Shown: piece by piece, positions 6,559-63,805 of the stretch
Position numbering within the stretch: the stretch's first letter is position 1
Layout of the letters: each line of letters opens with the position of its first letter
Made by a program: the position numbers and the translations under genes
Notes under the pieces: model-generated
Seen by the model: only the letters and a program-made list of their open reading frames with translations
Databases searched by the model: none
What the model was told of the DNA's origin: nothing
DNA from: an uncultured bacterium
Lineage (GTDB): Bacteria > Poribacteria > WGA-4E > PCPOR2b
Assembly (NCBI GenBank): GCA_964577695.1
Contig: CAZOAL010000006.1
Span: 177,511-241,510, forward strand
DNA length: 64,000 nucleotides
Direction of reading: 5' to 3'

Positions 6559-7042
6559 AGTTGAACGAAGCGAAATCCCGAAAATCGGGGCGGTACTCGA
6601 TACCAACGTTATCATCAGTGCGCTTCTGACCCGTGGACGGACACCGGATCAGGTCGTGCGGCAGGCAGGGCTGACCTATCAGTTTTGTACGAGCCATGAA
6701 CTTTTGGAAGAAATTGAGGGCGTCTTACATGAGCCGAAGATTCAAAAAAGAAGCGGTATGACCGAAGCGGAGATGAGTGCGTTTTTAACGAACCTTCGAT
6801 CTGTTGCTGTTGTCGTTGAAGCGCTTCCGGCACTTCAGGTAATCAAAGACGACCCCGACGATGATTTGATTCTTGCCTGTGCGGTCAAAGCCCAAGCCGA
6901 TTATCTGGTCAGCGGAGACACTCACCTCTTACAACTTCAAACTTACGAAGGAATCCAGATCGTCTCTCCAGCACAGTTTCTCACCATCTTGCAACAATCT
7001 CAGGGGAAGAAAGAGAAAAACAATCCAAGGCACCCCCTATAA
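6551..7042 (+). CDS. PIN-domain toxin (TIGR00305-like toxin-antitoxin PIN family)
   Basis: VLDTNVIISAL N-terminal PIN signature and acidic residues further on. Confidence 0.65.
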   Translation: MRKVERSEIPKIGAVLDTNVIISALLTRGRTPDQVVRQAGLTYQFCTSHELLEEIEGVLHEPKIQKRSGMTEAEMSAFLTNLRSVAVVVEALPALQVIKDDPDDDLILACAVKAQADYLVSGDTHLLQLQTYEGIQIVSPAQFLTILQQSQGKKEKNNPRHPL

Positions 7043-21007: not shown

Positions 21008-21100
21008 GACTGACCTCGTGCGTAATTCGTAAGACGTAATGCGTAAAAAGACACTTGCTCTTGTTACGCATTACGCATTACGCATTACGTCTCACGTTTT
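21005..21100. repeat. hairpin repeat with CGTAATG/CGCATTA heptamer arms
   Basis: cgtaagacgtaatgcgtaa ... ttacgcattacgcattacgcattacg. Confidence 0.6.
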
Positions 21101-22554: not shown

Positions 22555-22695
22555 AGGGTTGGTCATTATTCTCAGGGGAGGCAATCGTAGCCCAAGATTT
22601 CGACAAGCTCAACCCGGCGGATTCTATCTTGGCCCCTGGCGCATGGGCCAAGATAGAATCTTGGGCTACAACTCAACCGCCGGCGAATTATGACC
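22555..22695. mobile_element. MITE-like repeat family B, copy 2 (composite). Its terminal ATGACCAAGCC supplies the first ATG of the downstream giant ORF
   Basis: cgtagcccaagatt...ggccaagatagaatcttgggctac core; gaattatgaccaagcc end. Confidence 0.6.
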
Positions 22696-22719
22696 AAGCC
22701 TTACTTACCTAAATTTACA

Positions 22720-25700
22720 ATGGTAAACCGAAAGAAAGCAGCAAAGATGAGAGATTGGAAAAAGAAAAGTTATATCATCTTATCCATCATCGTTGGTAGC
22801 CTGTACATCTTCGCAACGTCTACTGTTGCCCAAGAGATTAAACGTCAGTCTATCCCTGTTGGAATGTTCAATGTGTATGCCACCATTGACAACAACAATA
22901 CCGGTCTGCCAACGCCCGACCTCCGCGATGTCTGGCAGGGCGTGCCGACAAACTGGGAGGGGGGCTACTACCCTTACGAAGCGTGTAACCTTGTGCAGCA
23001 CTACTGGCCGAAGGAACTTCCGACGGATGTGCCACCGGGACAGGATGCGTATGTCGTTTGGTGGACACGGTTTCTCCGGGAGGTTTACGAGCAAGGCAAC
23101 GAGAAGGGCGAGGTTCGATTGCGTGCGATTGTCGGTCCACTTTTCAGCCATTACGAAGCGTTCGGCGAGCAGTGGCTCATCAATTTTATCCAACGGCTCT
23201 GTGAGTGGGAGCGGAGCGGCCCACACGATGGCGTAATTGCCGGATGGTATCTCATCGAAGAGCCAATGGGGTCGGGCTCGCACAACTTCAACGTTGACAC
23301 CTTTGAGGAGATGGCGAAGGTCGTCGATAAAGCGGAAACGGCCGGTGGCTTTCGACACCATGACCGCTATGTTGATGTTTCCCTTGATGGGGCATTTTTC
23401 ACTCCACAGGGGCTGGCGCGTTTCTGCCGCCCAGCCGATGTCGTGATGGTCAGCTCCAGCAGCTATCTCTGGCTGACGAGTGGGACGCAGCCTGTATTTA
23501 ATACGCGTTATCGGGATTTAGCGTTCTCAATGAACCAGGTTCGCCGCACCGTTTTTCCAGACCATGACCAACACGGGCTGCCGCGTCCTAAGATTCATCT
23601 CGTCCTGCAAGCCTACGATCCGATGGGGTTTGGACAACCGACGCATTGGGAGATGCGCCAGCAAATTCGAGAGGCGTTGACCCTTGATTTTGAATTGCTC
23701 GGCAACCAACCGGTTGCACCAGCGGATGGAATCTGGTTTTTCTGGTGGCCGGGGCTGACCTTTGAGAACAAAAACCGTGTGGACGACTGGCTCTACGGAC
23801 GACAGATTGCGGAAGCGATCGAGCTTGAAGTGGCAGAGGTGACGGGTAACGGAGGTGAAACCCGGTCTGTGAATGTGCCGACAGCATCCCGCTTTGCCTT
23901 CCCACCGCTGGTTCCCTTCAACCCGGACGATGGCATCATCCCCTACGAGTTGGCAAAGTCAGGGCTTGTCACAATCGAAATCCTCGACATGAATGGCTCT
24001 AAGGTTCAGGCGTTTGACATGGGGATTCAGAGCGCGGGGCGGCTGCACCGGTTCGGAGGCCCCCGCTGGTTGCCACTCTCAACCCAGCCTGACGGGCGAT
24101 ATATCTTCCGGCAGTTTCTCAACTCCGTCCCCGTTGACAGCGTTGAGGTGGAAGTGCAACGGCAACCACGCCTCTTTAGCCCTTCCCATGTGCCCAACAT
24201 TTGGTCAAACGACAACACCATTGAGGTGACATGGCGTCCACCCGCTCTGGGCGCGGGGTTGGGGGGATTTTCATTTCTGTGGAGCAATTCTCCTTTCAGC
24301 ATTCCGCCTCGCACCGTTGCACTGACGCCATCGGATGTCACGTATACAAGTCCACCGTTGCCGGATGGGAAATCGCACTATTTTCATCTCCTAAGCGTCG
24401 ATGCAAACGGCGAATGGGGGGAGACATCGCATTTAGGCCCATTCTGGATTGATACGATACCCCCAGCTTTACCTACCGATGTTGTCAGCTCCAGTCATAA
24501 GACCGGAATTTGGTCATCGGCAAACGTGATTGATATCAAATGGTCTGCTGCGCCCCCCCCTCAATCCCCCCCGCGGGCAGGGGGTGAAGAGGGGCCTCCC
24601 CCCCTGCCCGCGGGGGGGACAGGGGGGGGGGCGTCTTTGCGCGGCTATTCAATCGTCTGGGACCGTCAGCCGTTCACGCTCCCGCCAGCGGAGATTAACG
24701 TTGGGCCCGCTGTCACTGCACTCTCGACGCCTCCACTTGTGGACGGCATCTGGTATCTGCACTTGCGCCCTGCGGATGTCGCTGGCAACTGGACAAGCGA
24801 TGCTGTGCACCTTGGCCCCTTCCAGATTGACACCCACTCGCCCAATCCACCGTCCGACTTGAGGGGCGTCTCTCATCAGGTCGGCGTCTGGTCAAACCGT
24901 GCCGAGATTGAGTTGGAATGGACAGCCGCTTCGGATGAAACCAGCGGCATCAAAAATTATCTCATCGTTTGGGATACCTCCCCGGACACACATCCAACGC
25001 CTGATGCCAATCCGTCCATCTTCCTTCCGCCCCTACTTGCAGGGGGGGGGGCTGGCAATTCGCCTAAGGTCAGCTACCGTGGCCCTGCCCTCGTTGATGG
25101 CGATACCCATTACGTCCATCTTCGCGCTGTGGATGGTGCCGGGCTGACGACAGATGAAACGCTCCATCTCGGTCCCTTCCGAATCGACGCAACCCCGCCG
25201 GGCGATATTCGTGGCTTTGCCGCGTATGGCGTAGAGCCCCCGCCAACCCCTCCCCTCTCGCCTCTCCCCGCTAGCGGAGAGGTTCCGCTTGACCTCAACA
25301 AGTGGCTGATCTCCCCTCAAATGATCCTTGCGTGGCAGGTAAGCACAGATTCCGGTAGCAGCGTTGCGGTCTACGAAATTACGCGAGTGCGCCCGGAAAC
25401 GGGAGAACAGCAGACCTTCCAAATCAACGCGGATGCGCCATCTCAATGGACCCCGGCAGGTCTGAGCGATGGTGCTTGGGTATTTCGCCTCCGGGCCGGC
25501 GATAACGCTGGTAACTGGAGCGCTTATTCCGACCTGACGCTCAAGATTGATACCACCGTGCCAACGCCTATCCTCAACAGTCCCTCCCACCCGAATAGCG
25601 AACGCTGGTACGCGGATGCGAATCCAATCGTCGAATGGATGATTGAGCGCGATCTATCCGGCATCGCGGGGTATCTTGGAGAATGGAGCGATCAACCGGA

Positions 25701-28700
25701 CACCATTCCTCAAACGCCAATCAATGAATCGACAATCGACAATCGAGGTTCGGTGAATGGAGGAACGGAGGAAGTAGAGCGGGCGGCTCGCCCGTTTGGA
25801 AAGATACGCAATACGCAATACGCAATACGCAATACGAACGACTCACCACTCACCATTCACCCATCACTCCCTGACGGCATCTGGTATTTCCACCTGCGTG
25901 CGATCGACAACGCGGGCAACCGGAGCGAAGTCGCTCACTATAAGGTGCAGATTGAGCACCAAGTCCCTGAAACACCAATCATCCGCTCACAGACCCACCC
26001 CCCGGAGCGTTGGTCAAAGAGCCATATTGTCGATCTGCGTTGGGACGAAGCCCCCACATTGAGCGGCCCCCCCCGCTACAGTTTTGCGCTCGACCACGCC
26101 CCCGACACCCTCCCTGACGATACGCCCGAACCAATTAGGGAGGGTGAAGCTCCCGCTGAACCCCACATTGAGCAAACGCTGGACGATGGGATTTGGTACT
26201 TTCATCTCAAGGCAATTAGCAGAACCGGAATTAGGAGCGAGACCGCCCATTATCGTATACAGATTGATAGCCAGATTGCGACGCCGGTCATCCGCAGCCC
26301 CTCGCACGCGGATAGCACGAGCTGGTATGCGAACCCATCGCCGGTGATCGAATGGACGATTGCGGACGACCTCTCTGGAATTGCCGGCTATTTCGGCGAA
26401 TGGGATTCCCAACCGAACACGATTCCGCAAACGCCTATTTCTCCCTCACCCCCCCTCACCCCCGGCCCCTCTCCCACAGGGGGGAGAGGGGAGCCACTTG
26501 ATAACGAAAACAGGGTGTTCGCACTCCAAAGCGGGGTCTGGTACTTCCACCTGCGCGCGATCGATAACGCCGGCAATCTCAGCGAAACGGCGCACTACCA
26601 GGTTCGCATCGATGCGTCCGCGCCGGCTGTGCCTGTCATCCAGTCCAGCTCCCATCCGGCGGGCGTTTGGCGGTCTCAGTCGGCTGTGGATATCCGCTGG
26701 AACGTTGGCACCCCCACCCCAACCCTTCCCCGCGGACAGGGAGGGGGCTTGAGTGGGATGGCTGGCTATAGCTTCGTGCTAGACCAGAAACCCACCACGT
26801 TGCCTGATGAGCGGATTGACGGCCTTCAGCCTCAAGTGACAACCACGCTTGCGGATGGCATCTGGTACTTCCACCTGCGAGCGCAGAGCAATACGGGACT
26901 GTGGAGCGAAACTGCCCATTACGAGATACGAATTGACACCCACCCTCCCGAAATCACGATTACGCTGCCGCCTAGTGGGGAGCGGGAGCGCGAGGCTCCT
27001 GCCGAGTGGTTCAGGCAAGCCATCAATGAATACGCTGGGGAGATGCGCGATGAGCTATCCGGCATTGACGAGACAACGCTCGAATATCGGTACGCGGGGC
27101 TGGATTGGAAGCCCTTCGTCAACGAGGCGTCAAGCGGTTGGCTTGACACAAACGAATTGCCCCATGTCACCCAGGCAAGCGGCGTGTCGTTGCAAGTGCG
27201 CGTTCGCGATCGCGCGGAGAACGTTGGGCTGTCTGAGGAGCGGCTGATTCGCGTGGATGTCGAACCTCCATCACTGACAGTGACAAGTCCCACGCATCCC
27301 CAGCAGGGAAGATGGTACGCCGATCCGAACCCGGTGGTTGAATGGACGGTTAGTAGCGACCTCTCCGGGATTGCAGATTACTTTTGGGTGTGGGACAACC
27401 AATCGGACACGATTCCCCGGCAGGGCCAGAAAACCGGAGACCCAGAAAGCCAGACAGCCAACGAGAGCAAGTCACAGGTTCGGCGGGAGCCTCACCCTCC
27501 CACCAGTCACAGGTTCGGCGGGAGCCTCACCCTCCCACTCACGGATGGCATCTGGTATTTCCACTTAATCGCCTTTGATAACGCCGGCAACCCAAGCGAG
27601 CCAGTCCACTACCGTTTTCAAATTGACACGCAACCGCCGAAGGGGACGATTCACATTCTCAGACCGGAGGTCATCAAGGGTCGTCCAAAATCTGTTCGCT
27701 ATCTTGAATCAAAGGAGGTTCCGCCGCGCGTCAGCTCAGGAGAAATTCGGATTGTTCTCACGCTATCGGAAGAGATGATTGAGCCCCCGAAACTCTTTTT
27801 CCAGCCGAATAGTCGGCAGGAGATAGCCCTTGCACTCGGCCGGAGCCTCGTGCTCCCACTGGATGGGGCCGAGGGGGCACAAAATCGCTCGCCGCTTCAA
27901 TGGCACGCCACATTACAGGTTTCGCCTCACACAGGCGATGGTGTGGGCAAGTTTCGATTTGTCGGCACTGATGGAGCTGGCAACCTTGGGGGTGAAATTA
28001 CGATGGGCATGGAACTCGTCATCGATACGCTCATCCATGCGGATGAAACGGAAGTCCAGCATCGAATCGGCGATAACGGCGCGATTGCGACAATCCCTCC
28101 CCGAGCGCTCCGCTCCGATGTACGCTTGCACCTTGAGGCGTCCCCCCATACCCCCCCCTCCAGGGGGGGGACGCAAGGTTCTGACCCTGGCTTCCCCCCC
28201 GTGGACGGGGGGGGTACGGGGGGGACCACAGGGGGGGGGACATCCAACCGCTACCGCCTCATCGCCTGGGATGGAACTGGACGTCCCCTTCCGAATCTGA
28301 CGTTTGTCGCGCCGATTGAGTTACAACTGCCAATCGATGCAACGCAGCCGATTGGGGCGGGAGATGCCGCGTATACAGTGCTTTACAACGATGGTGTCAG
28401 GACCCATCGGATCGGCACCGTCGTCGCAGGTGGCCAGGCGATCGCGTCCGTCAGTCAGATCGGCGAATTTCTGATTGCCCCCGCGCCCACGCCCAAGCGG
28501 AAGATTACCGGCGGGTGGGCGGCCCCGAATCCTTTCACGCCCAACCACAGCGGCGATGCCAGCGATCGAACAATCTTCCACGTTCAAACGCGGGGGGACG
28601 ATGTGACCTTCACCATCGAAATCTATGGCCTGACGGGACGACGCATTCGCACGTTGCGCAACGGATTGAATGTGTGGGATGGGTCAGATGAAAGCGGCAG

Positions 28701-28782
28701 GGTTGTCGAAAATGGTGTGTACATCTACCAGATTCATGCGGGGGATGAGGTGATTAGCGGGACCGTTGTCGTGGTGAGGTGA
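22720..28782 (+). CDS. giant secreted modular surface protein (about 2020 aa): N-terminal TIM-barrel-like putative glycosyl-hydrolase-like domain, about 10 tandem ~100-aa beta-sandwich modules (PSHP..RWYA..DLSGIAGY..WD.QPDTIP...DGIWYFHLRA.DNAGN) and a T9SS-type C-terminal sorting domain
   Basis: Repeated modules visible in the translation; C-terminal PNPFTPN...FTIEIYGLTGRRIRTL tail; signal-peptide-like N-terminus after M at 22720 or 22747. Confidence 0.65.
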   Translation: MVNRKKAAKMRDWKKKSYIILSIIVGSLYIFATSTVAQEIKRQSIPVGMFNVYATIDNNNTGLPTPDLRDVWQGVPTNWEGGYYPYEACNLVQHYWPKELPTDVPPGQDAYVVWWTRFLREVYEQGNEKGEVRLRAIVGPLFSHYEAFGEQWLINFIQRLCEWERSGPHDGVIAGWYLIEEPMGSGSHNFNVDTFEEMAKVVDKAETAGGFRHHDRYVDVSLDGAFFTPQGLARFCRPADVVMVSSSSYLWLTSGTQPVFNTRYRDLAFSMNQVRRTVFPDHDQHGLPRPKIHLVLQAYDPMGFGQPTHWEMRQQIREALTLDFELLGNQPVAPADGIWFFWWPGLTFENKNRVDDWLYGRQIAEAIELEVAEVTGNGGETRSVNVPTASRFAFPPLVPFNPDDGIIPYELAKSGLVTIEILDMNGSKVQAFDMGIQSAGRLHRFGGPRWLPLSTQPDGRYIFRQFLNSVPVDSVEVEVQRQPRLFSPSHVPNIWSNDNTIEVTWRPPALGAGLGGFSFLWSNSPFSIPPRTVALTPSDVTYTSPPLPDGKSHYFHLLSVDANGEWGETSHLGPFWIDTIPPALPTDVVSSSHKTGIWSSANVIDIKWSAAPPPQSPPRAGGEEGPPPLPAGGTGGGASLRGYSIVWDRQPFTLPPAEINVGPAVTALSTPPLVDGIWYLHLRPADVAGNWTSDAVHLGPFQIDTHSPNPPSDLRGVSHQVGVWSNRAEIELEWTAASDETSGIKNYLIVWDTSPDTHPTPDANPSIFLPPLLAGGGAGNSPKVSYRGPALVDGDTHYVHLRAVDGAGLTTDETLHLGPFRIDATPPGDIRGFAAYGVEPPPTPPLSPLPASGEVPLDLNKWLISPQMILAWQVSTDSGSSVAVYEITRVRPETGEQQTFQINADAPSQWTPAGLSDGAWVFRLRAGDNAGNWSAYSDLTLKIDTTVPTPILNSPSHPNSERWYADANPIVEWMIERDLSGIAGYLGEWSDQPDTIPQTPINESTIDNRGSVNGGTEEVERAARPFGKIRNTQYAIRNTNDSPLTIHPSLPDGIWYFHLRAIDNAGNRSEVAHYKVQIEHQVPETPIIRSQTHPPERWSKSHIVDLRWDEAPTLSGPPRYSFALDHAPDTLPDDTPEPIREGEAPAEPHIEQTLDDGIWYFHLKAISRTGIRSETAHYRIQIDSQIATPVIRSPSHADSTSWYANPSPVIEWTIADDLSGIAGYFGEWDSQPNTIPQTPISPSPPLTPGPSPTGGRGEPLDNENRVFALQSGVWYFHLRAIDNAGNLSETAHYQVRIDASAPAVPVIQSSSHPAGVWRSQSAVDIRWNVGTPTPTLPRGQGGGLSGMAGYSFVLDQKPTTLPDERIDGLQPQVTTTLADGIWYFHLRAQSNTGLWSETAHYEIRIDTHPPEITITLPPSGEREREAPAEWFRQAINEYAGEMRDELSGIDETTLEYRYAGLDWKPFVNEASSGWLDTNELPHVTQASGVSLQVRVRDRAENVGLSEERLIRVDVEPPSLTVTSPTHPQQGRWYADPNPVVEWTVSSDLSGIADYFWVWDNQSDTIPRQGQKTGDPESQTANESKSQVRREPHPPTSHRFGGSLTLPLTDGIWYFHLIAFDNAGNPSEPVHYRFQIDTQPPKGTIHILRPEVIKGRPKSVRYLESKEVPPRVSSGEIRIVLTLSEEMIEPPKLFFQPNSRQEIALALGRSLVLPLDGAEGAQNRSPLQWHATLQVSPHTGDGVGKFRFVGTDGAGNLGGEITMGMELVIDTLIHADETEVQHRIGDNGAIATIPPRALRSDVRLHLEASPHTPPSRGGTQGSDPGFPPVDGGGTGGTTGGGTSNRYRLIAWDGTGRPLPNLTFVAPIELQLPIDATQPIGAGDAAYTVLYNDGVRTHRIGTVVAGGQAIASVSQIGEFLIAPAPTPKRKITGGWAAPNPFTPNHSGDASDRTIFHVQTRGDDVTFTIEIYGLTGRRIRTLRNGLNVWDGSDESGRVVENGVYIYQIHAGDEVISGTVVVVR
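24553..24633. repeat. G/C mini-palindrome (poly-C-CCGCGGGCAGGGGG ... CCCCCTGCCCGCGGGGGGG) lying in frame inside the giant CDS
   Basis: Encodes PPPQSPPRAGGEEGPPPLPAGGTGGGA; shares the CCGCGG core with similar elements at 26710-26748 and 59992-60060. Confidence 0.6.
25775..25862. repeat. heptamer-arm repeat element ((ACGCAAT)x4 ... (ACTCACC)x3, preceded by palindrome cgggcggctcgcccg) lying in frame in a loop of one module of the giant CDS
   Basis: Translated as ERAARPFGKIRNTQYAIRNTNDSPLTIHPS; same unit type as intergenic hairpin repeats. Confidence 0.6.
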
Positions 28783-40651: not shown

Positions 40652-40780
40652 GGATGGTCATCATTCGCCGACGGTTGAGTTGTAGCCCAAGATTCTATCT
40701 TGGCCCCTTACGCAAGGGCCAAGTTAGAAACTTGGGCTACGATTGCCTCCCCTGGGAATTATGACCAACCCTCAACTAAC
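40652..40780. mobile_element. MITE-like repeat family B, copy 3
   Basis: ggatggtcatcattcg...gttgtagcccaagattctatcttggcc...ggccaagttagaaacttgggctac...gaattatgaccaacc. Confidence 0.6.
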
Positions 40781-43705: not shown

Positions 43706-43775
43706 TGCGTTACCTCCTTCACCCTTGATTTCTAATACAGTTTCACTCCGATTGAATTTTGGAGTGGGAGCTCTT

Positions 43776-43808
43776 AGAAACCGAGTTTTTTAGAAAAACT
43801 CGGTTTCT
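43776..43808. terminator. perfect hairpin repeat family D copy 1 (agaaaccgagttttttagaaaaactcggtttct); bidirectional terminator-like
   Basis: 15-bp stem, T-runs on both strands. Confidence 0.5.
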
Positions 43809-43819
43809 GACCGTTTCTG

Positions 43820-45637: not shown

Positions 45638-45667
45638 TAAAAGAAACCGAGTTTTTTCAAAAAACTC
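45632..45667. terminator. hairpin repeat family D copy 2 (agaaaccgagttttttcaaaaaactcggtttct)
   Basis: Seen in sequence; flanks the phosphoesterase gene on the other side from copy 1. Confidence 0.5.
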
Positions 45668-45706
45668 GGTTTCTCGTTACTAAATTTTCAATCTCCATAA
45701 ATCTTT

Positions 45707-48850: not shown

Positions 48851-48985
48851 CATGTTTCAGAAAACGGTTGACACTTCGAGAGCATGATGCGTGAGGCGTA
48901 AAACGTGAAACGTAAGAAGAGCTCCCTTTACGTTTTACGTTTTACGAAAGCAGTTCAACACCTTTTTTCGGAAATTTGAAACATG
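48851..48985. mobile_element. MITE-like repeat family A, copy 4 (contains ttgacac; internal CGTGAAA/CGTAAAA heptamer hairpin)
   Basis: catgtttcagaaaacggttgacac ... cggaaatttgaaacatg. Confidence 0.7.
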
Positions 48986-59694: not shown

Positions 59695-61281
59695 TCAACG
59701 CTTTGCTCCCAGCTTCAGCTTTTTCAGCGTGAAGGGGGTGTATTGCGACTCGCCTTCAACGATCCGGATGAACTGATCGACCGGCACGTTATGGAAGGTT
59801 TGTGTGAGTCCGGTGGTTGGCCAAAAGACCTCAAGAGTCTCGATTTTTTCCGCCACCCCCAAGCCGATTGTCTGCCTCAAGGGATTGGCACCGAAACTGC
59901 CGCCGCTGTTGACATGCTTGTAGATGGCGCGTCTGGCACCGTTCTCAATGACTTCGGCGCGGATGCGCGCCCCGATGGCCGATCGGTTGCTCCCCCCCCC
60001 CGCCCGCGGGGGGGATTTAAGGGCATCCCCTCGGCCCCCCCCGTGAACGGGGGGGGTGCCGACCAATTGAATGCTGATAAAATGATTGCCGAACCCTGGG
60101 TTTTCATACAGGACGTTGCTGTACCTGTCGCCGGGGAAGGCACCGCCCATCTGCTCGAAAACGTCCGAATCGCCATCGTTGTCAAGGTCAGCAAAGACAA
60201 CGGCATGTCCCTTCTGCAAGTGACCGAAGCCACCCGTGTATGTCACGTCCACGAACCGCCGCCCCCCCTGATTGCGGTACATGACGTTCGGCATCAGTTC
60301 CTGATAGTCCGGGTACCCCGTGCCGAGGTAAAAATCGAGATAGCCATCGTTGTCGAGGTCGCCAAAGTTGGCCCCCATTGGCGCGTTGGGGTGTATCAGG
60401 TTGTATTGTTTGGCAACTTCCTCAAACCCGCCGCTCCCATTTCCACGATATAGACAAGCCAACTCGGTTTGTACGGGCCTCCCAAGGGCGTCTGCCGCGA
60501 TCTCCGCGATGCCAGCGGCATAAGCGGACACATACAGGTCTAAGACGCCATCGTTGTCAAAGTCCCAGAACCAGGCGGGAAAGCTCTCCATCGGAAAGGC
60601 AACATCCAGTTGCCAGGCCATGTCAGTGAAAGTCCCATCGCCGTTGTTGCGATAGAGGCGATTGGGGCCCTTGTAGTTGGACACGTAGATGTCCTGCCAG
60701 CGGTCACCATCATAATCGCCCCAGATGACGGCCTTGGTAAAACCGTTGTTCTGCACACCGGCTATCGCGGCGACATCGGTAAAGCTGCCGTCGCCATTGT
60801 TGTGGAAAAGTTGGCATGGGGCGTTCAACGTCCCGGAGGATTCGTTTCCGATGTACAGATCGAGCGCACCGTCATTGTCATAATCACCCCAGGAGGCGGT
60901 CTGGGTGGGGTAATGCACCAAGCCCAAACCGGCATCGAAGGTCACGTCCGTGAACGTGCCATCCCCGTTGTTACGCAACAGGGAGTTCGGATGCCTCCCA
61001 TTTTGGCCAAGCCAGGCACCCCGTAGCACGAGGATATCGGTATCCCCATCGTTGTCATAGTCCGCTTGAATGAGGTTCAGTCCGCCATACAGCCCCAGCA
61101 GTCCGGCACGTTCCGTTTGTTCGGAGAAGGTGCCGGACTGATTGTTCCTGAAAAAATGAATCTGTCCAGCGGTGTCCGAGGTCGAAACCACGATGTCCAG
61201 ATAGCCGTCGTTGTCGAAATCGTCAGCGATGGCACCGCCCGCCAGATCGAATGTATCAAGCCCCAGACGCGGCTCGATGTT
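59695..61281 (-). pseudogene. CRTAC1/ASPIC-UnbV-family protein with FG-GAP repeats, 5'-truncated (no signal peptide or start) by the adjacent IscB element
   Basis: FG-GAP motifs DFDNDGYLDIV, DYDNDGDTDIL; C-terminal UnbV_ASPIC-like region; the frame opens directly after AT-rich junk at 61285-61344. Confidence 0.6.
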
Positions 61282-61344
61282 CGTAAAACGTGGTATTGAA
61301 TTTGTTTATAAAAATTCTATAAAAATCGTGAAATCTTATGAAAA

Positions 61345-62574
61345 TTATACGGCTTTTTCCCAGATGACGGTTTGCCCTCGCACTAACAATTGACAGTCTT
61401 TTGGTTTTGCGGCATTGGGTTCACCTTTGACTCGTGCAAAGGCTAAGTACCCGTTACTATAAATGGAGTTGATTTGCTTAACCCATTTTCCTTTAACACC
61501 GACTATATCGCCTTTGCGAAAACCATCTAATTCCACATTGACCTGATACCTCACACGTCCCACCCCTTTACGTGGCAAGTCGTGGTAAATCCGCCGTGTT
61601 TGTCGAGGTCTGAACGTGACGATATAAAAGTTTTCACGATTTTCTGGGATAACATCACCCATTTCTAAGGTTGCAACACACAAGGCATCAATCGAGTGGC
61701 TTTTGGCTAAATCGAGTGATTTGCGATAAAAGGAGGTCTGATAACCAAACACTTTTGATAGTTTAGCCATTTGACCTAATGTTTCATAGAGGTATGCTTT
61801 TCCTTGCATGGTTCGTTGGGCGATTCGATCCTCAAACCCGCTGACACCGCTGACATCAAGTTGAAGTTTCCCAAGATGTGTCTTATTGTGACAAGGTTTG
61901 CAAAGCGTTATCAAGTTGGTAATCGTATCTTTACCCCCCTGTGAGCGTGGGACAATGTGGTGTGCTTCAAGAGGAGGGTTCTTTTCCCCGCACGGTGTAC
62001 ATTGGTAGCCATCACGCATCAAGGTTGCAATTCGGAGGTTTTCATCAAGGCGGTTCGATTGTTGATAGGCTTGCCCAATCAAGGTCGGGTTATTCAGACG
62101 GGCAATATCAACCTGCACATCTTCAATGACAATGGAGGTCATTGGCAATGGAATTTGACGCACAACACGAATCACCTCATCGGCATTGGCTTTTATTGAG
62201 GGTGGCAGACGCCCACTGCGCTTTGACGAGGCACGGTTTGAAAAACGTCTCGGGCGATACCATGTTCGGTTACGTCTGTTTCGCCTGTTAGCTCGTCGGG
62301 CGTCCATTTTGTCTTTGATGTCCGTTCGATGATTGATTTCACCTGACATCAAAATTCGTCCGTTTGCCACACAACTCAATCCTGTGATGTGACTCCCTTT
62401 GTCAATACCAACGGTTACCTGTTGGACATTTTCTTCACAATCCCAAAGCAGTTGAATCGTAAACGGACACCGATTCACGACTTTGGCTTTCTGATCTCGC
62501 AACAACTTTCTTGCCTTGGCGGGTTTACATGGCATTAATGGCGTGCCATTTTTATTTCTAACATAAACATTCAT
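61345..62574 (-). mobile_element. iscB: iscB: IS200/IS605-family OMEGA RNA-guided nuclease (no tnpA nearby; non-autonomous element)
   Basis: PLMP motif (TPLMPCKPAKARKLL), RuvC-I GIDKGSHITG, arginine-rich bridge RRANRRNRRNRTWYRPRRF, RuvC-II IVIEDV, HNH (CTPCG...HHIVPRSQGG...CKPCHNKTH), 409 aa. Confidence 0.8.
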
Positions 62575-62870
62575 ATTGTCACTAAGACCTCCTGAATGCG
62601 AGAGTGAAAGACTCCTCGGGGTTGTTAAATCGGCTTTTTACGCCTGACACACCTTCACGTTTCCGCTACCCTTAATGCCAGGCCACAGAGCGACCGACTG
62701 GAATCACATCTGCCGGTGTGATGACCTATCTAACTGCTGCAACGAATCGATGATCCGTTGCCCACTGTTAGTTCCATGTCTACGAATATTTTTCCATAAA
62801 CATTAGGAATATTTTTCAGTAGATTTAGGAACTATCTGTTCCTCAGATTCAAAGGCCTGCGGCGGGATGA
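62575..62870 (-). ncRNA. predicted omega-RNA region upstream of iscB (guide expected at its 5' end, next to the IS left end)
   Basis: Position only: non-coding and GC-balanced, immediately 5' of iscB where omega-RNAs are encoded. Confidence 0.3.
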
Positions 62871-62924
62871 GGTACGGTTCAGGCACCTGCTCCGGGTAGC
62901 CCCCGATGGTCATGTACGCAATGT

Positions 62925-63590
62925 TCAGAGCCATCTCGATCGAAGATCAGGATAACGCCGAATCCCCCCTACCCCCCTTTCCAAAGGGGGGTAGGGGGGA
63001 TTTTCCGACGGATTCTGCAATACCTGAGTAAAACAAGCAATCGCTTGTCGAGCGGCATCCTGCTGGGTGTGGAGACCGCCGCCGCGCAGGGGCAGGATGC
63101 AGCTTTCGGGCATAAGGCGCAGGCAACAGTTTTGTGTTTCACCCAGCCGTAGGTACGCCACACCGAGGCGAAAGAGGGTTTGATTCACCACCGCCGGTAC
63201 TGGACTCCCCCCCTCAATCCCCCCCAAAGTTGTGGGGGAAGGGGGAGGTAGCAACTGGCGCGCCCGTGTAAAGAGATTGATTGCCTCCGCTTCATTCCCC
63301 AGATGAAGTTCCGCCTCCCCCGCTGCCATATACAGTTGCCATCGCTCTGAGGCTGGCGTGTCAGCGGGAGTCGCCGCGAGCCGTTCCCGTAACCGACGCG
63401 CCACGCTATCCCCGATGTAAATGTGTTCTTCTGGAGTTTGGTCAGCAATCTGTTTCAGCACATCCAACATCTTCTGGTGGCCCGGTGAAACTTCACGCGC
63501 GGCTGTCTCGGCAGGTATGGAGGCGACAAAACCCACCGTCCAGAGGGTCAAAAGCACGCCTGCAATGATTGGACGGCATGAGCAAACCAT
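62925..63590 (-). CDS. TPR-like secreted protein; the C-terminal region carries two in-frame G/C mini-palindromes
   Basis: Signal-peptide-like N-terminus; helical repeats; palindromes at 62957-63003 and 63205-63250. Confidence 0.35.
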   Translation of the reverse strand: MVCSCRPIIAGVLLTLWTVGFVASIPAETAAREVSPGHQKMLDVLKQIADQTPEEHIYIGDSVARRLRERLAATPADTPASERWQLYMAAGEAELHLGNEAEAINLFTRARQLLPPPSPTTLGGIEGGSPVPAVVNQTLFRLGVAYLRLGETQNCCLRLMPESCILPLRGGGLHTQQDAARQAIACFTQVLQNPSENPPYPPLERGVGGIRRYPDLRSRWL

Positions 63591-63689
63591 GGATGTCCCC
63601 TTCTCTTGATGATTTCGTGATTCACGAGGAAAGTTAGGTACCTACCTAACCCAAGTTGTCAGTTATTTCAATTTCGTTTCGCCATTCTG

Positions 63690-63770
63690 GAAGGAGAGGA
63701 AGAAAAGGAAGGAAAGGAAGGAGAACCGGCTTGAAGTCGCTTTCTTCCTTTCCTTCCATCCCTCCTTTCT
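63690..63770. repeat. GGAAGG-unit hairpin repeat
   Basis: ggaaggagaggaagaaaaggaaggaaaggaagg ... cttcctttccttccatccctcc. Confidence 0.55.
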
Positions 63771-63805
63771 GTCCGTCATGGGAGAAGGCGTTCCAGCACC
63801 ACAGG

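Follow-up and report, generated by a model that had tools for sequence, protein, structure and literature searches.

A 64-kb window of DNA from an uncultured bacterium of the Poribacteria (GenBank assembly GCA_964577695.1, contig CAZOAL010000006.1, positions 177,511 to 241,510 of the forward strand) carries, at 61297–62835, a 1539-bp stretch made up of a gene for the RNA-guided nuclease IscB, the DNA of its omega-RNA and a short terminal tail, and set within a gene for a secreted (surface) protein of the CRTAC1 family. Element, iscB, omega-RNA and host gene all lie on the minus strand, and every position below is in the numbering of the window, by which we mean the whole 64-kb stretch. A sequence-only reading of the window had described this locus as a TnpA-less derivative of the IS200/IS605 insertion sequence (IS) family, with IscB and omega-RNA, that had inserted into and inactivated a CRTAC1-like gene, and the protein, the RNA and the junctions each bear this description out. 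The span it gave, 61285–62900, has had to be narrowed: an element does lie at the locus, and related copies together with intact host homologs place its ends at 61297 and 62835. The features on which the argument turns are the following.

59695–61296, minus strand: 3′ part of the host gene, resuming at (I)PRFTNIEPRLG; six FG-GAP_3 stretches and UnbV_ASPIC.
61293–61296, minus strand: host ATAC (GTAT on the plus strand), adjoining the iscB-distal end of the element; predicted TnpA target site and IscB target-adjacent motif (TAM).
61297–62835, minus strand: complete element (omega-RNA scaffold, iscB and 48-nt terminal tail), with its ends set from related copies and host homologs.
61297–61344, minus strand: conserved 48-nt terminal tail downstream of the iscB stop, the left end in the TnpA convention; near-identical in the related copies L035 and L042.
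61345–62574, minus strand: iscB, 409 amino acids, stop codon at 61345–61347; PLMP/RRXRR, split RuvC, bridge helix, HNH insert and C-terminal domain.
62575–62835, minus strand: omega-RNA scaffold, from a HEARO match at 62604–62835 and a 3′ extension to 62575.
62836–62851, minus strand: predicted guide segment TGAATCTGAGGAACAG, host coding sequence directly 5′ of the scaffold, its position deduced from the scaffold boundary.
62836–63590, minus strand: 5′ part of the host gene, with the start codon, a hydrophobic, signal-peptide-like N terminus and tetratricopeptide repeat (TPR) sequence, from homolog alignment.

The 409-residue product of the iscB open reading frame (ORF) matches Pfam RRXRR (PF14239; 2.7e-53, model positions 1–173/174) and Pfam HNH (1.2e-13, residues 192–233). 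It scores 297.6 bits (E 9.4e-89) against the NCBIfam equivalog NF040563, guided_IscB “RNA-guided endonuclease IscB,” for which the cut-off is 175 bits. Every motif of the IscB layout named in the sequence-only reading (PLMP, GIDKG, arginine-rich helix, IVIEDV, HNH with two CxxC pairs and HH, and RuvC-III) is found. A literal TPLMP occupies residues 11–15 and the arginine-rich bridge helix residues 93–110; the RuvC residues are D58 (in GIDKG), E151 (in IVIEDV), and H293 and D296 (in SHSIDALC), and the HNH insert contributes C192xxC195, H205–H206 (in EAHHIVPR), and N220 and C225xxC228 (in NLITLCKPCH). The RuvC and HNH motifs align opposite their equivalents in OgeuIscB and HfmIscB, whose sequences come from solved structures, and the catalytic and zinc-binding residues, C192 and C195 included, are invariant in an alignment of 51 sequences comprising the window IscB and 50 homologs. 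Domain order and aligned catalytic residues are those of OgeuIscB (PDB 7xht, 7utn), HfmIscB (9k2z) and GstIscB from Geobacillus stearothermophilus. GstIscB is inactivated by the mutations D58A/H209A/H210A (Meers et al., bioRxiv 10.1101/2023.03.14.532601), and the equivalents of these three residues in the window protein are D58, H205 and H206. Judged by its sequence, the ORF is an intact IscB, for which RNA-guided, TAM-dependent cleavage is predicted.

Comparison with known structures leads to the same family. The best sequence matches in the PDB are IscB proteins solved with omega-RNA and target DNA (2.4e-57 to 4.5e-25), led by HfmIscB (2.4e-57, covering residues 4–301), with TbaIscB at 9.7e-35 and OgeuIscB at 8.7e-26. 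The AlphaFold2 model is moderate, with a predicted local distance difference test score (pLDDT) of 68.9 and a predicted template modelling score (pTM) of 0.49. When this model was compared with the PDB by Foldseek, the best nine matches were IscB–omega-RNA–DNA complexes, save for an IsrB complex at rank 4 (E 1e-20 to 1e-15), and small Cas9 proteins ranked after the IscB complexes. The window protein differs from the solved IscBs in that identity in the structure alignment is merely 18–26%, and at 409 residues it is shorter than OgeuIscB, which has 496. Across the family, the C-terminal residues 303–409 are conserved, and the model renders them mainly as beta structure, with pLDDT below 50 at 324–348; here the PDB sequence alignments reach only to about residue 319, and the Foldseek alignments run over 490–510 columns with template modelling (TM) scores of merely 0.37–0.45.

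Upstream of iscB, on the same strand, lies the DNA of a structured RNA. HEARO is the omega-RNA of IscB, and its Rfam model leaves out 3′ elements (Meers et al.). In the window, that model (RF02033) is matched over its full length (1–211/211) at 62604–62835 on the minus strand, with 68.3 bits and an E value of 6.4e-13, and the region folds as a single sequence with a z score of −3.5. For covariation, the window omega-RNA region was aligned with 13 relatives from other genomes, and RNAalifold returned 59 pairs in ten helices, 31 of the 59 with compensatory double changes. In this consensus structure 95.7% of cells pair, against 34–39% when the partners are slid by 1–3 columns, and the observed value was reached by none of 500 column shuffles, whichever measure was used. 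All ten helices are intact in the window sequence. The earlier proposal that the ~300 nt 5′ of iscB encode an omega-RNA, to be checked by folding and by comparison with omega-RNA covariance models, is thus supported by the HEARO match, the fold and the covariation, with the scaffold now set at 62575–62835. That reading had also considered that a structured RNA might be absent and the catalytic residues lost; the RNA is structured and all HNH and RuvC residues are kept.

As in the Rfam family, the RNA adjoins an ORF with HNH and RRXRR, and the helices of the model, which is covered as a whole, are the same ones that covary within the subfamily. The window RNA departs from RF02033 in two respects. 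Its first hairpin is expanded by ~40 nt, and at its 3′ end is a small hairpin (helix 10) that the Rfam model does not include; in it, CUCU pairs with AGGAGG at the ribosome-binding site of iscB.

The host gene is recognizable on both sides of the element. Six stretches of its 3′ part match Pfam FG-GAP_3 (2.1e-51), and UnbV_ASPIC is matched as well (2.7e-12). On the other side, a 221-codon ORF (62925–63590) has a hydrophobic start, signal-peptide-like as judged by eye, and TPR sequence, and from there to 62836 the gene runs on in a different frame, as ALNIAYMTIGGYPEQVPEPYLIPPQAFESEEQ. Joined, the two halves give 785 residues, which align at 62–69% identity and 95–100% coverage with more than 100 uninterrupted proteins of 740–1160 residues, some of them named “CRTAC1 family protein [Candidatus Poribacteria bacterium].” The insertion therefore interrupts a CRTAC1-like gene, as had been claimed, but has split it in two and not truncated it: the true 5′ part is still there, at 62836–63590. 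A 43-codon ORF that had been put forward as the orphaned 5′ end does exist, at 62803–62934 instead of about 62798–62929, but it is no such end: codons 2–33 come from the interior of the gene (ALNIAYMTIGGYPEQVPEPYLIPPQAFESEEQ), and the last 10 codons are read from omega-RNA DNA.

The frame changes where a single nucleotide has been lost between 62929 and 62928, at ~95 nt upstream of the insertion; there, homologs have RWLLNIAYMT and the window reads AGATGGCT-CTGAAC. This frameshift creates a stop at 62925–62927 and puts the segment read in the 43-codon ORF out of frame with the upstream part. The missing nucleotide may mark a second lesion that inactivates the gene, or the consensus may be in error here. 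The frameshift and the junctions are alike in a second assembly of the locus, the 15-kb JGI contig Ga0136847_10332093 (L025), which is 99.985% identical over 6656 nt without gaps; the two assemblies possibly derive from the same reads. Split and frameshifted, the host gene is inactivated.

The coding sequence of the host gene also contains three short in-frame hairpins (runs of 6–10 C followed by 6–10 G), at 59992–60057, 62959–63004 and 63207–63250, the second being a perfect palindrome with a 20-bp stem. They add ~20, 14 and 9 Pro/Gly-rich residues (TPPVHGGGRGDALKSPPRAGGG, PPYPPLERGVGGIR and PPPSPTTLGGIEGGSP), which all aligned homologs lack. Similar C/G-run hairpins occur inside the ORF at 22690–28782 (24553–24632, 25042, 26067 and 28142–28240), and hairpins of this kind look like small palindromic repeat insertions tolerated by coding regions. 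Just upstream of the start of the CRTAC1 gene, at 63688–63775, lies a GGAAGGAAA-repeat palindrome, for which matches to Rfam microRNA families at the E-value level were rejected as spurious, low-complexity matches.

Both ends of the element were placed by aligning related copies and uninterrupted CRTAC1 homologs, the comparison that the sequence-only reading had recommended. At the omega-RNA end, similarity between copies starts sharply at ATAGTTCCTAAATC, which corresponds to 62835 and to position 1 of the HEARO model, and the 5′ flanks of the 15 upstream regions compared are unrelated. All copies begin with ATAGTTCC (62835 in the window), with the variants ACAGTTCC in L002 and ATAGTTAC in L008. 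The iscB-distal end was inspected in 15 copies and in 3 sites fetched later, 18 in all, and most of these have a short AT-rich tail, ...AATAC, followed by divergent flanks. The 48-nt tail of the window copy is nearly identical in L042 and in L035, which comes from the same JGI sample as the second assembly; its last ~20–25 nt, ending in ATAC, are common to more distant copies in Thiomargarita, Parabeggiatoa and Poribacteria. What had been set aside as AT-rich junk at 61285–61344 is instead a conserved transposon end (61297–61344) and host coding sequence (61285–61296). At the distal junction, the window has ATAC, and so do 16 of the 18 related copies (13/15 in the first set and 3/3 of the further sites); L002 has ACAC, and the end of L007 could not be placed.

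The four junction nucleotides belong to the host, because the host reading frame and the homologs require them. In a 40-sequence alignment, all 24 intact homologs listed have AFESEE(Q)-I-PRF(T)NI, with a single residue between the halves (Ile in 23, Met in 1). The reconstructed empty site is ...GAG GAA CAG ATA CCA CGT TTT..., that is, CAG/ATAC/CACG, and the insertion point falls between the Q codon and the ATA-C of the next Ile-Pro codons. In longer form, the empty site is predicted to be ...GAATCTGAGGAACAG/ATAC/CACGTTTTACG... The joined flanks are exactly in frame with a single ATAC, and there is no target duplication. The 5′ ATAG of the element belongs to the first omega-RNA helix, in which the second base of the ATAG is paired and covaries in L002 (pair 2–88), so the host ATAC is the one at the iscB-distal junction, 61296–61293. 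ATA is found at both junctions, which leaves an uncertainty of up to 3 nt in the boundary, and the last bases were settled from the host frame.

The copy L002 (Anaerolineales HSG24; 3771, ~5300) has ACAG in place of ATAG at the omega-RNA end, with a compensated partner, and ACAC in place of ATAC at the opposite end. In this single case, the ends seem to change together with each other and with the omega-RNA helix, as expected if the same transposase mechanism reads both sites. Across the copies, the ends are conserved and have no inverted terminal repeats, and the copies lie at unrelated sites, also within single genomes. As DNA, the omega-RNA end forms a strong hairpin (z −2.6).

Relatives of the element are numerous. 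A protein search returned 2261 IscB homologs at E ≤ 1e-20, more than 100 of them at 68–82% identity; Candidatus Poribacteria contribute several, which carry no annotation beyond “HNH endonuclease” or “McrA.” When the GTDB representatives were scanned, with a single genome for each species and the source genome not among them, 24 related loci came up, with a best identity of 78%. The subfamily spans Gammaproteobacteria, Desulfobacterales, Chloroflexota and Poribacteria, and it has been mobile: copies with different flanks occur within single assemblies, on three contigs of one Thiomargarita nelsonii assembly and on five of one Parabeggiatoa assembly. The window copy lies inside coding sequence, whereas the three close relatives that were inspected (P0137, P0153 and P0123) occupy other, unrelated sites, next to unrelated genes and not in CRTAC1 genes.

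The exact IscB protein, when looked up, was found only at the window locus, and no other copy of the element is present in the 64-kb window. A search of metagenome contigs with the 22-nt element tail gave seven matches, of which only L042 is a real copy (at the L035 site); the others were rejected as chance AT-rich matches. The collection searched did not return the window's own JGI contig, and that sample is apparently absent from it.

Two observations concern the relatives only. In Thiomargarita nelsonii L013, a second HEARO RNA (6772–7005, 111.7 bits) lies ~1.5 kb downstream of the first IscB element, which suggests that two elements lie in tandem or close to each other. Within the region of L009 that matches iscB, at 776–887, there is a group II intron domain.

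The interior of the window element is fully taken up by the omega-RNA, iscB and the 48-nt tail, with no space for a tnpA gene, and Y1_Tnp (PF01797) had no match among 90 stop-to-stop ORFs of 105–230 residues from the whole window. The earlier statement that no TnpA lies adjacent therefore holds for the element and for all 90 of these ORFs. With no Y1 (HUH) TnpA inside, the element is non-autonomous, which is the usual state for iscB: only ~1.5% of iscB genes are near a tnpA (Meers et al.). The same 1.5-kb TnpA-less unit is found in relatives. Considered together, these data make it very probable that 61297–62835 is a non-autonomous IscB/omega-RNA element of the IS200/IS605 family, inserted into a CRTAC1-family gene in the same orientation and without target duplication. 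It is a well-preserved, ordinary member of a well-described and very abundant class.

The mechanism that we propose for the element is drawn from published work on the family, in which IscB elements tend to point the same way as the gene upstream of them, and TnpA and IscB read the same TAM (Meers et al.). Transcription from the CRTAC1 promoter would read through into the element; a search of the minus strand from the start of the host gene to the guide gave no sigma-70-like promoter, which agrees with read-through. The 5′ end of the read-through omega-RNA would then carry ~16 nt of host sequence, TGAATCTGAGGAACAG (62851–62836), as its guide. Characterised IscBs use guides of ~16 nt, and with up to three mismatches allowed this segment occurs only once in the window, at its own site. 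In the TnpA convention, the omega-RNA end would be the right end, and ATAC (GTAT on the plus strand) would be the target site, lying 5′ of the left end. Were a TnpA from elsewhere to excise the element in trans, the rejoined site would have the guide match followed by ATAC. IscB with its omega-RNA would cut this empty site, after excision or on a sister copy, and recombinational repair from an occupied copy would restore the element. The part played by IscB would accordingly be in retaining and homing the element and not in transposing it.

This arrangement agrees with known IscB elements, in which an omega-RNA of the HEARO type lies upstream on the same strand, the guide comes from the flank (as is predicted here), tnpA is missing, the orientation is that of the upstream gene, and a short conserved motif adjoins the iscB-distal end. 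The predicted TAM differs: ATAC, compared with TTCAT for GstIscB (Meers et al.) and with NWRRNA for OgeuIscB (PMC12660989). The proposed logic is also like that of TnpB–omega-RNA (reRNA) elements such as ISDra2, in which a TnpA-mobilised nuclease cuts the empty donor joint. TnpB elements are unlike the present one in that the nuclease has RuvC only, the RNA overlaps the 3′ end of the tnpB gene, and the TAM is on the 5′ side of the target.

Several points weigh against this interpretation. No second copy of the exact element is on record in the window, in the exact-protein look-up or in the element-tail search, and recent mobility in the source genome is not supported. No TnpA donor is known for that genome, the Y1_Tnp search having covered the 64-kb window. 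The HEARO score of 68.3 bits is under the Rfam gathering score of 83, and the window has no match at gathering level, whereas the equivalent iscB-upstream regions of relatives exceed it (88.3 bits in L014 and 124 bits in L019). The hairpin at the left end is weak (6 bp, AT only, z −0.4). Transcription of the omega-RNA, and its start, are predictions, and the TAM and the guide length are likewise deduced, 16 nt being assumed from characterised IscBs. A search of metagenome contigs with the 24-mer CTGAGGAACAGATACCACGTTTTA did not find the empty-site allele, which counts for little in a collection that also missed the window's own JGI contig.

The lone copy, the HEARO score and the lack of a TnpA in 64 kb are also what might be expected of a domesticated or decaying relic, its nuclease or RNA defunct and kept by chance or co-opted by the host. 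We consider this improbable, since the ORF is full length and has all of the catalytic and zinc-binding residues invariant among the 51 aligned sequences, the omega-RNA keeps its ten helices unbroken, the two ends are exactly those seen in relatives, and the absence of a TnpA is the rule for iscB, with ~1.5% near one. The names given to homologs by JGI and NCBI, “McrA” or “HNH endonuclease,” would instead point to a stand-alone restriction endonuclease, and a weak NCBIfam match to a miniature CRISPR Cas9, Cas9d. Either is scarcely credible. HNH accounts for just residues 190–233, an insert in a split RuvC fold that is accompanied by an RRXRR domain, and the Cas9d match is confined to the HNH motif, at 30.7 against a cut-off of 375, whereas the IscB equivalog is passed. 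No CRISPR array was found in the 55–64 kb part of the window, and the 409 residues include no REC lobe. We therefore rejected both assignments. An assembly chimera, in which the IS and the two gene halves would not be contiguous in the organism, deserves a thought for a metagenome-derived contig, repeats being common points of chimerism. We rejected this also, and give it almost no weight: the 15-kb JGI and 243-kb NCBI contigs have the same junctions and agree without gaps at 99.985% over 6656 nt, albeit possibly from shared reads, and the flanks join in frame to the nucleotide in a protein colinear with its homologs, which is not expected of a chimera.

The order of events at the host gene is a closer question. 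The frameshift at 62928/62929, so near the insertion and present in both assemblies, may mean that the gene was already a pseudogene before the element arrived, and we hold this to be a serious possibility, although the less favoured one. Against this, the frameshift could be a consensus error. Apart from these lesions the gene has no stops and is 62–69% identical to intact homologs from end to end, which makes either lesion recent.

A further idea concerns the site itself. The predicted guide is the conserved coding motif AFESEEQ, and the Ile-Pro codons that follow (ATA-CC) supply the ATAC. The gene family from which this guide is taken has thousands of close homologs and is probably multi-copy in Poribacteria-like genomes. 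With its guide in a conserved motif of a large gene family, the element might conceivably cut and home into CRTAC1 paralogs, spreading by RNA-guided gene conversion without TnpA. We think this most improbable; the neighbourhoods of the three close relatives P0137, P0153 and P0123 show no sign of homing into the CRTAC1 family.

As a textbook element from a subfamily with more than 2000 public homologs, the IscB/omega-RNA insertion has little bearing on new biology. Its value lies in being a natural example in which both junctions and the empty site can be reconstructed to the nucleotide from the host frame. It adds one more case of an element lying inside a gene and running in the same direction as that gene, in keeping with the published proposal that omega-RNA guides are transcribed by read-through. 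It also provides a concrete predicted guide and a predicted TAM (ATAC) for a compact, 409-residue IscB, a candidate editing scaffold. For annotation, homologs called “HNH endonuclease” or “McrA” need correction, and the CRTAC1 gene is to be entered as a pseudogene split by an IS.

Elsewhere in the window, an intergenic hairpin built on the motif ACGTAAAACGTAAAACG occurs in three copies (160–210, 21034–21076 and 48897–48946), and two other hairpins are each repeated, GGCCCAAGATAGAATC at 22619–22661 and 40682–40740, and AAACCGAGTTTTT at 43773–43811 and 45639–45677. All three are probably terminator-like repeats or repeats resembling repetitive extragenic palindromic (REP) sequences. The window is also rich in small genes of toxin-antitoxin type, namely PemK/MazF with MazE, DUF433 with DUF5615, TumE, several PIN, nucleotidyltransferase and DUF4276.

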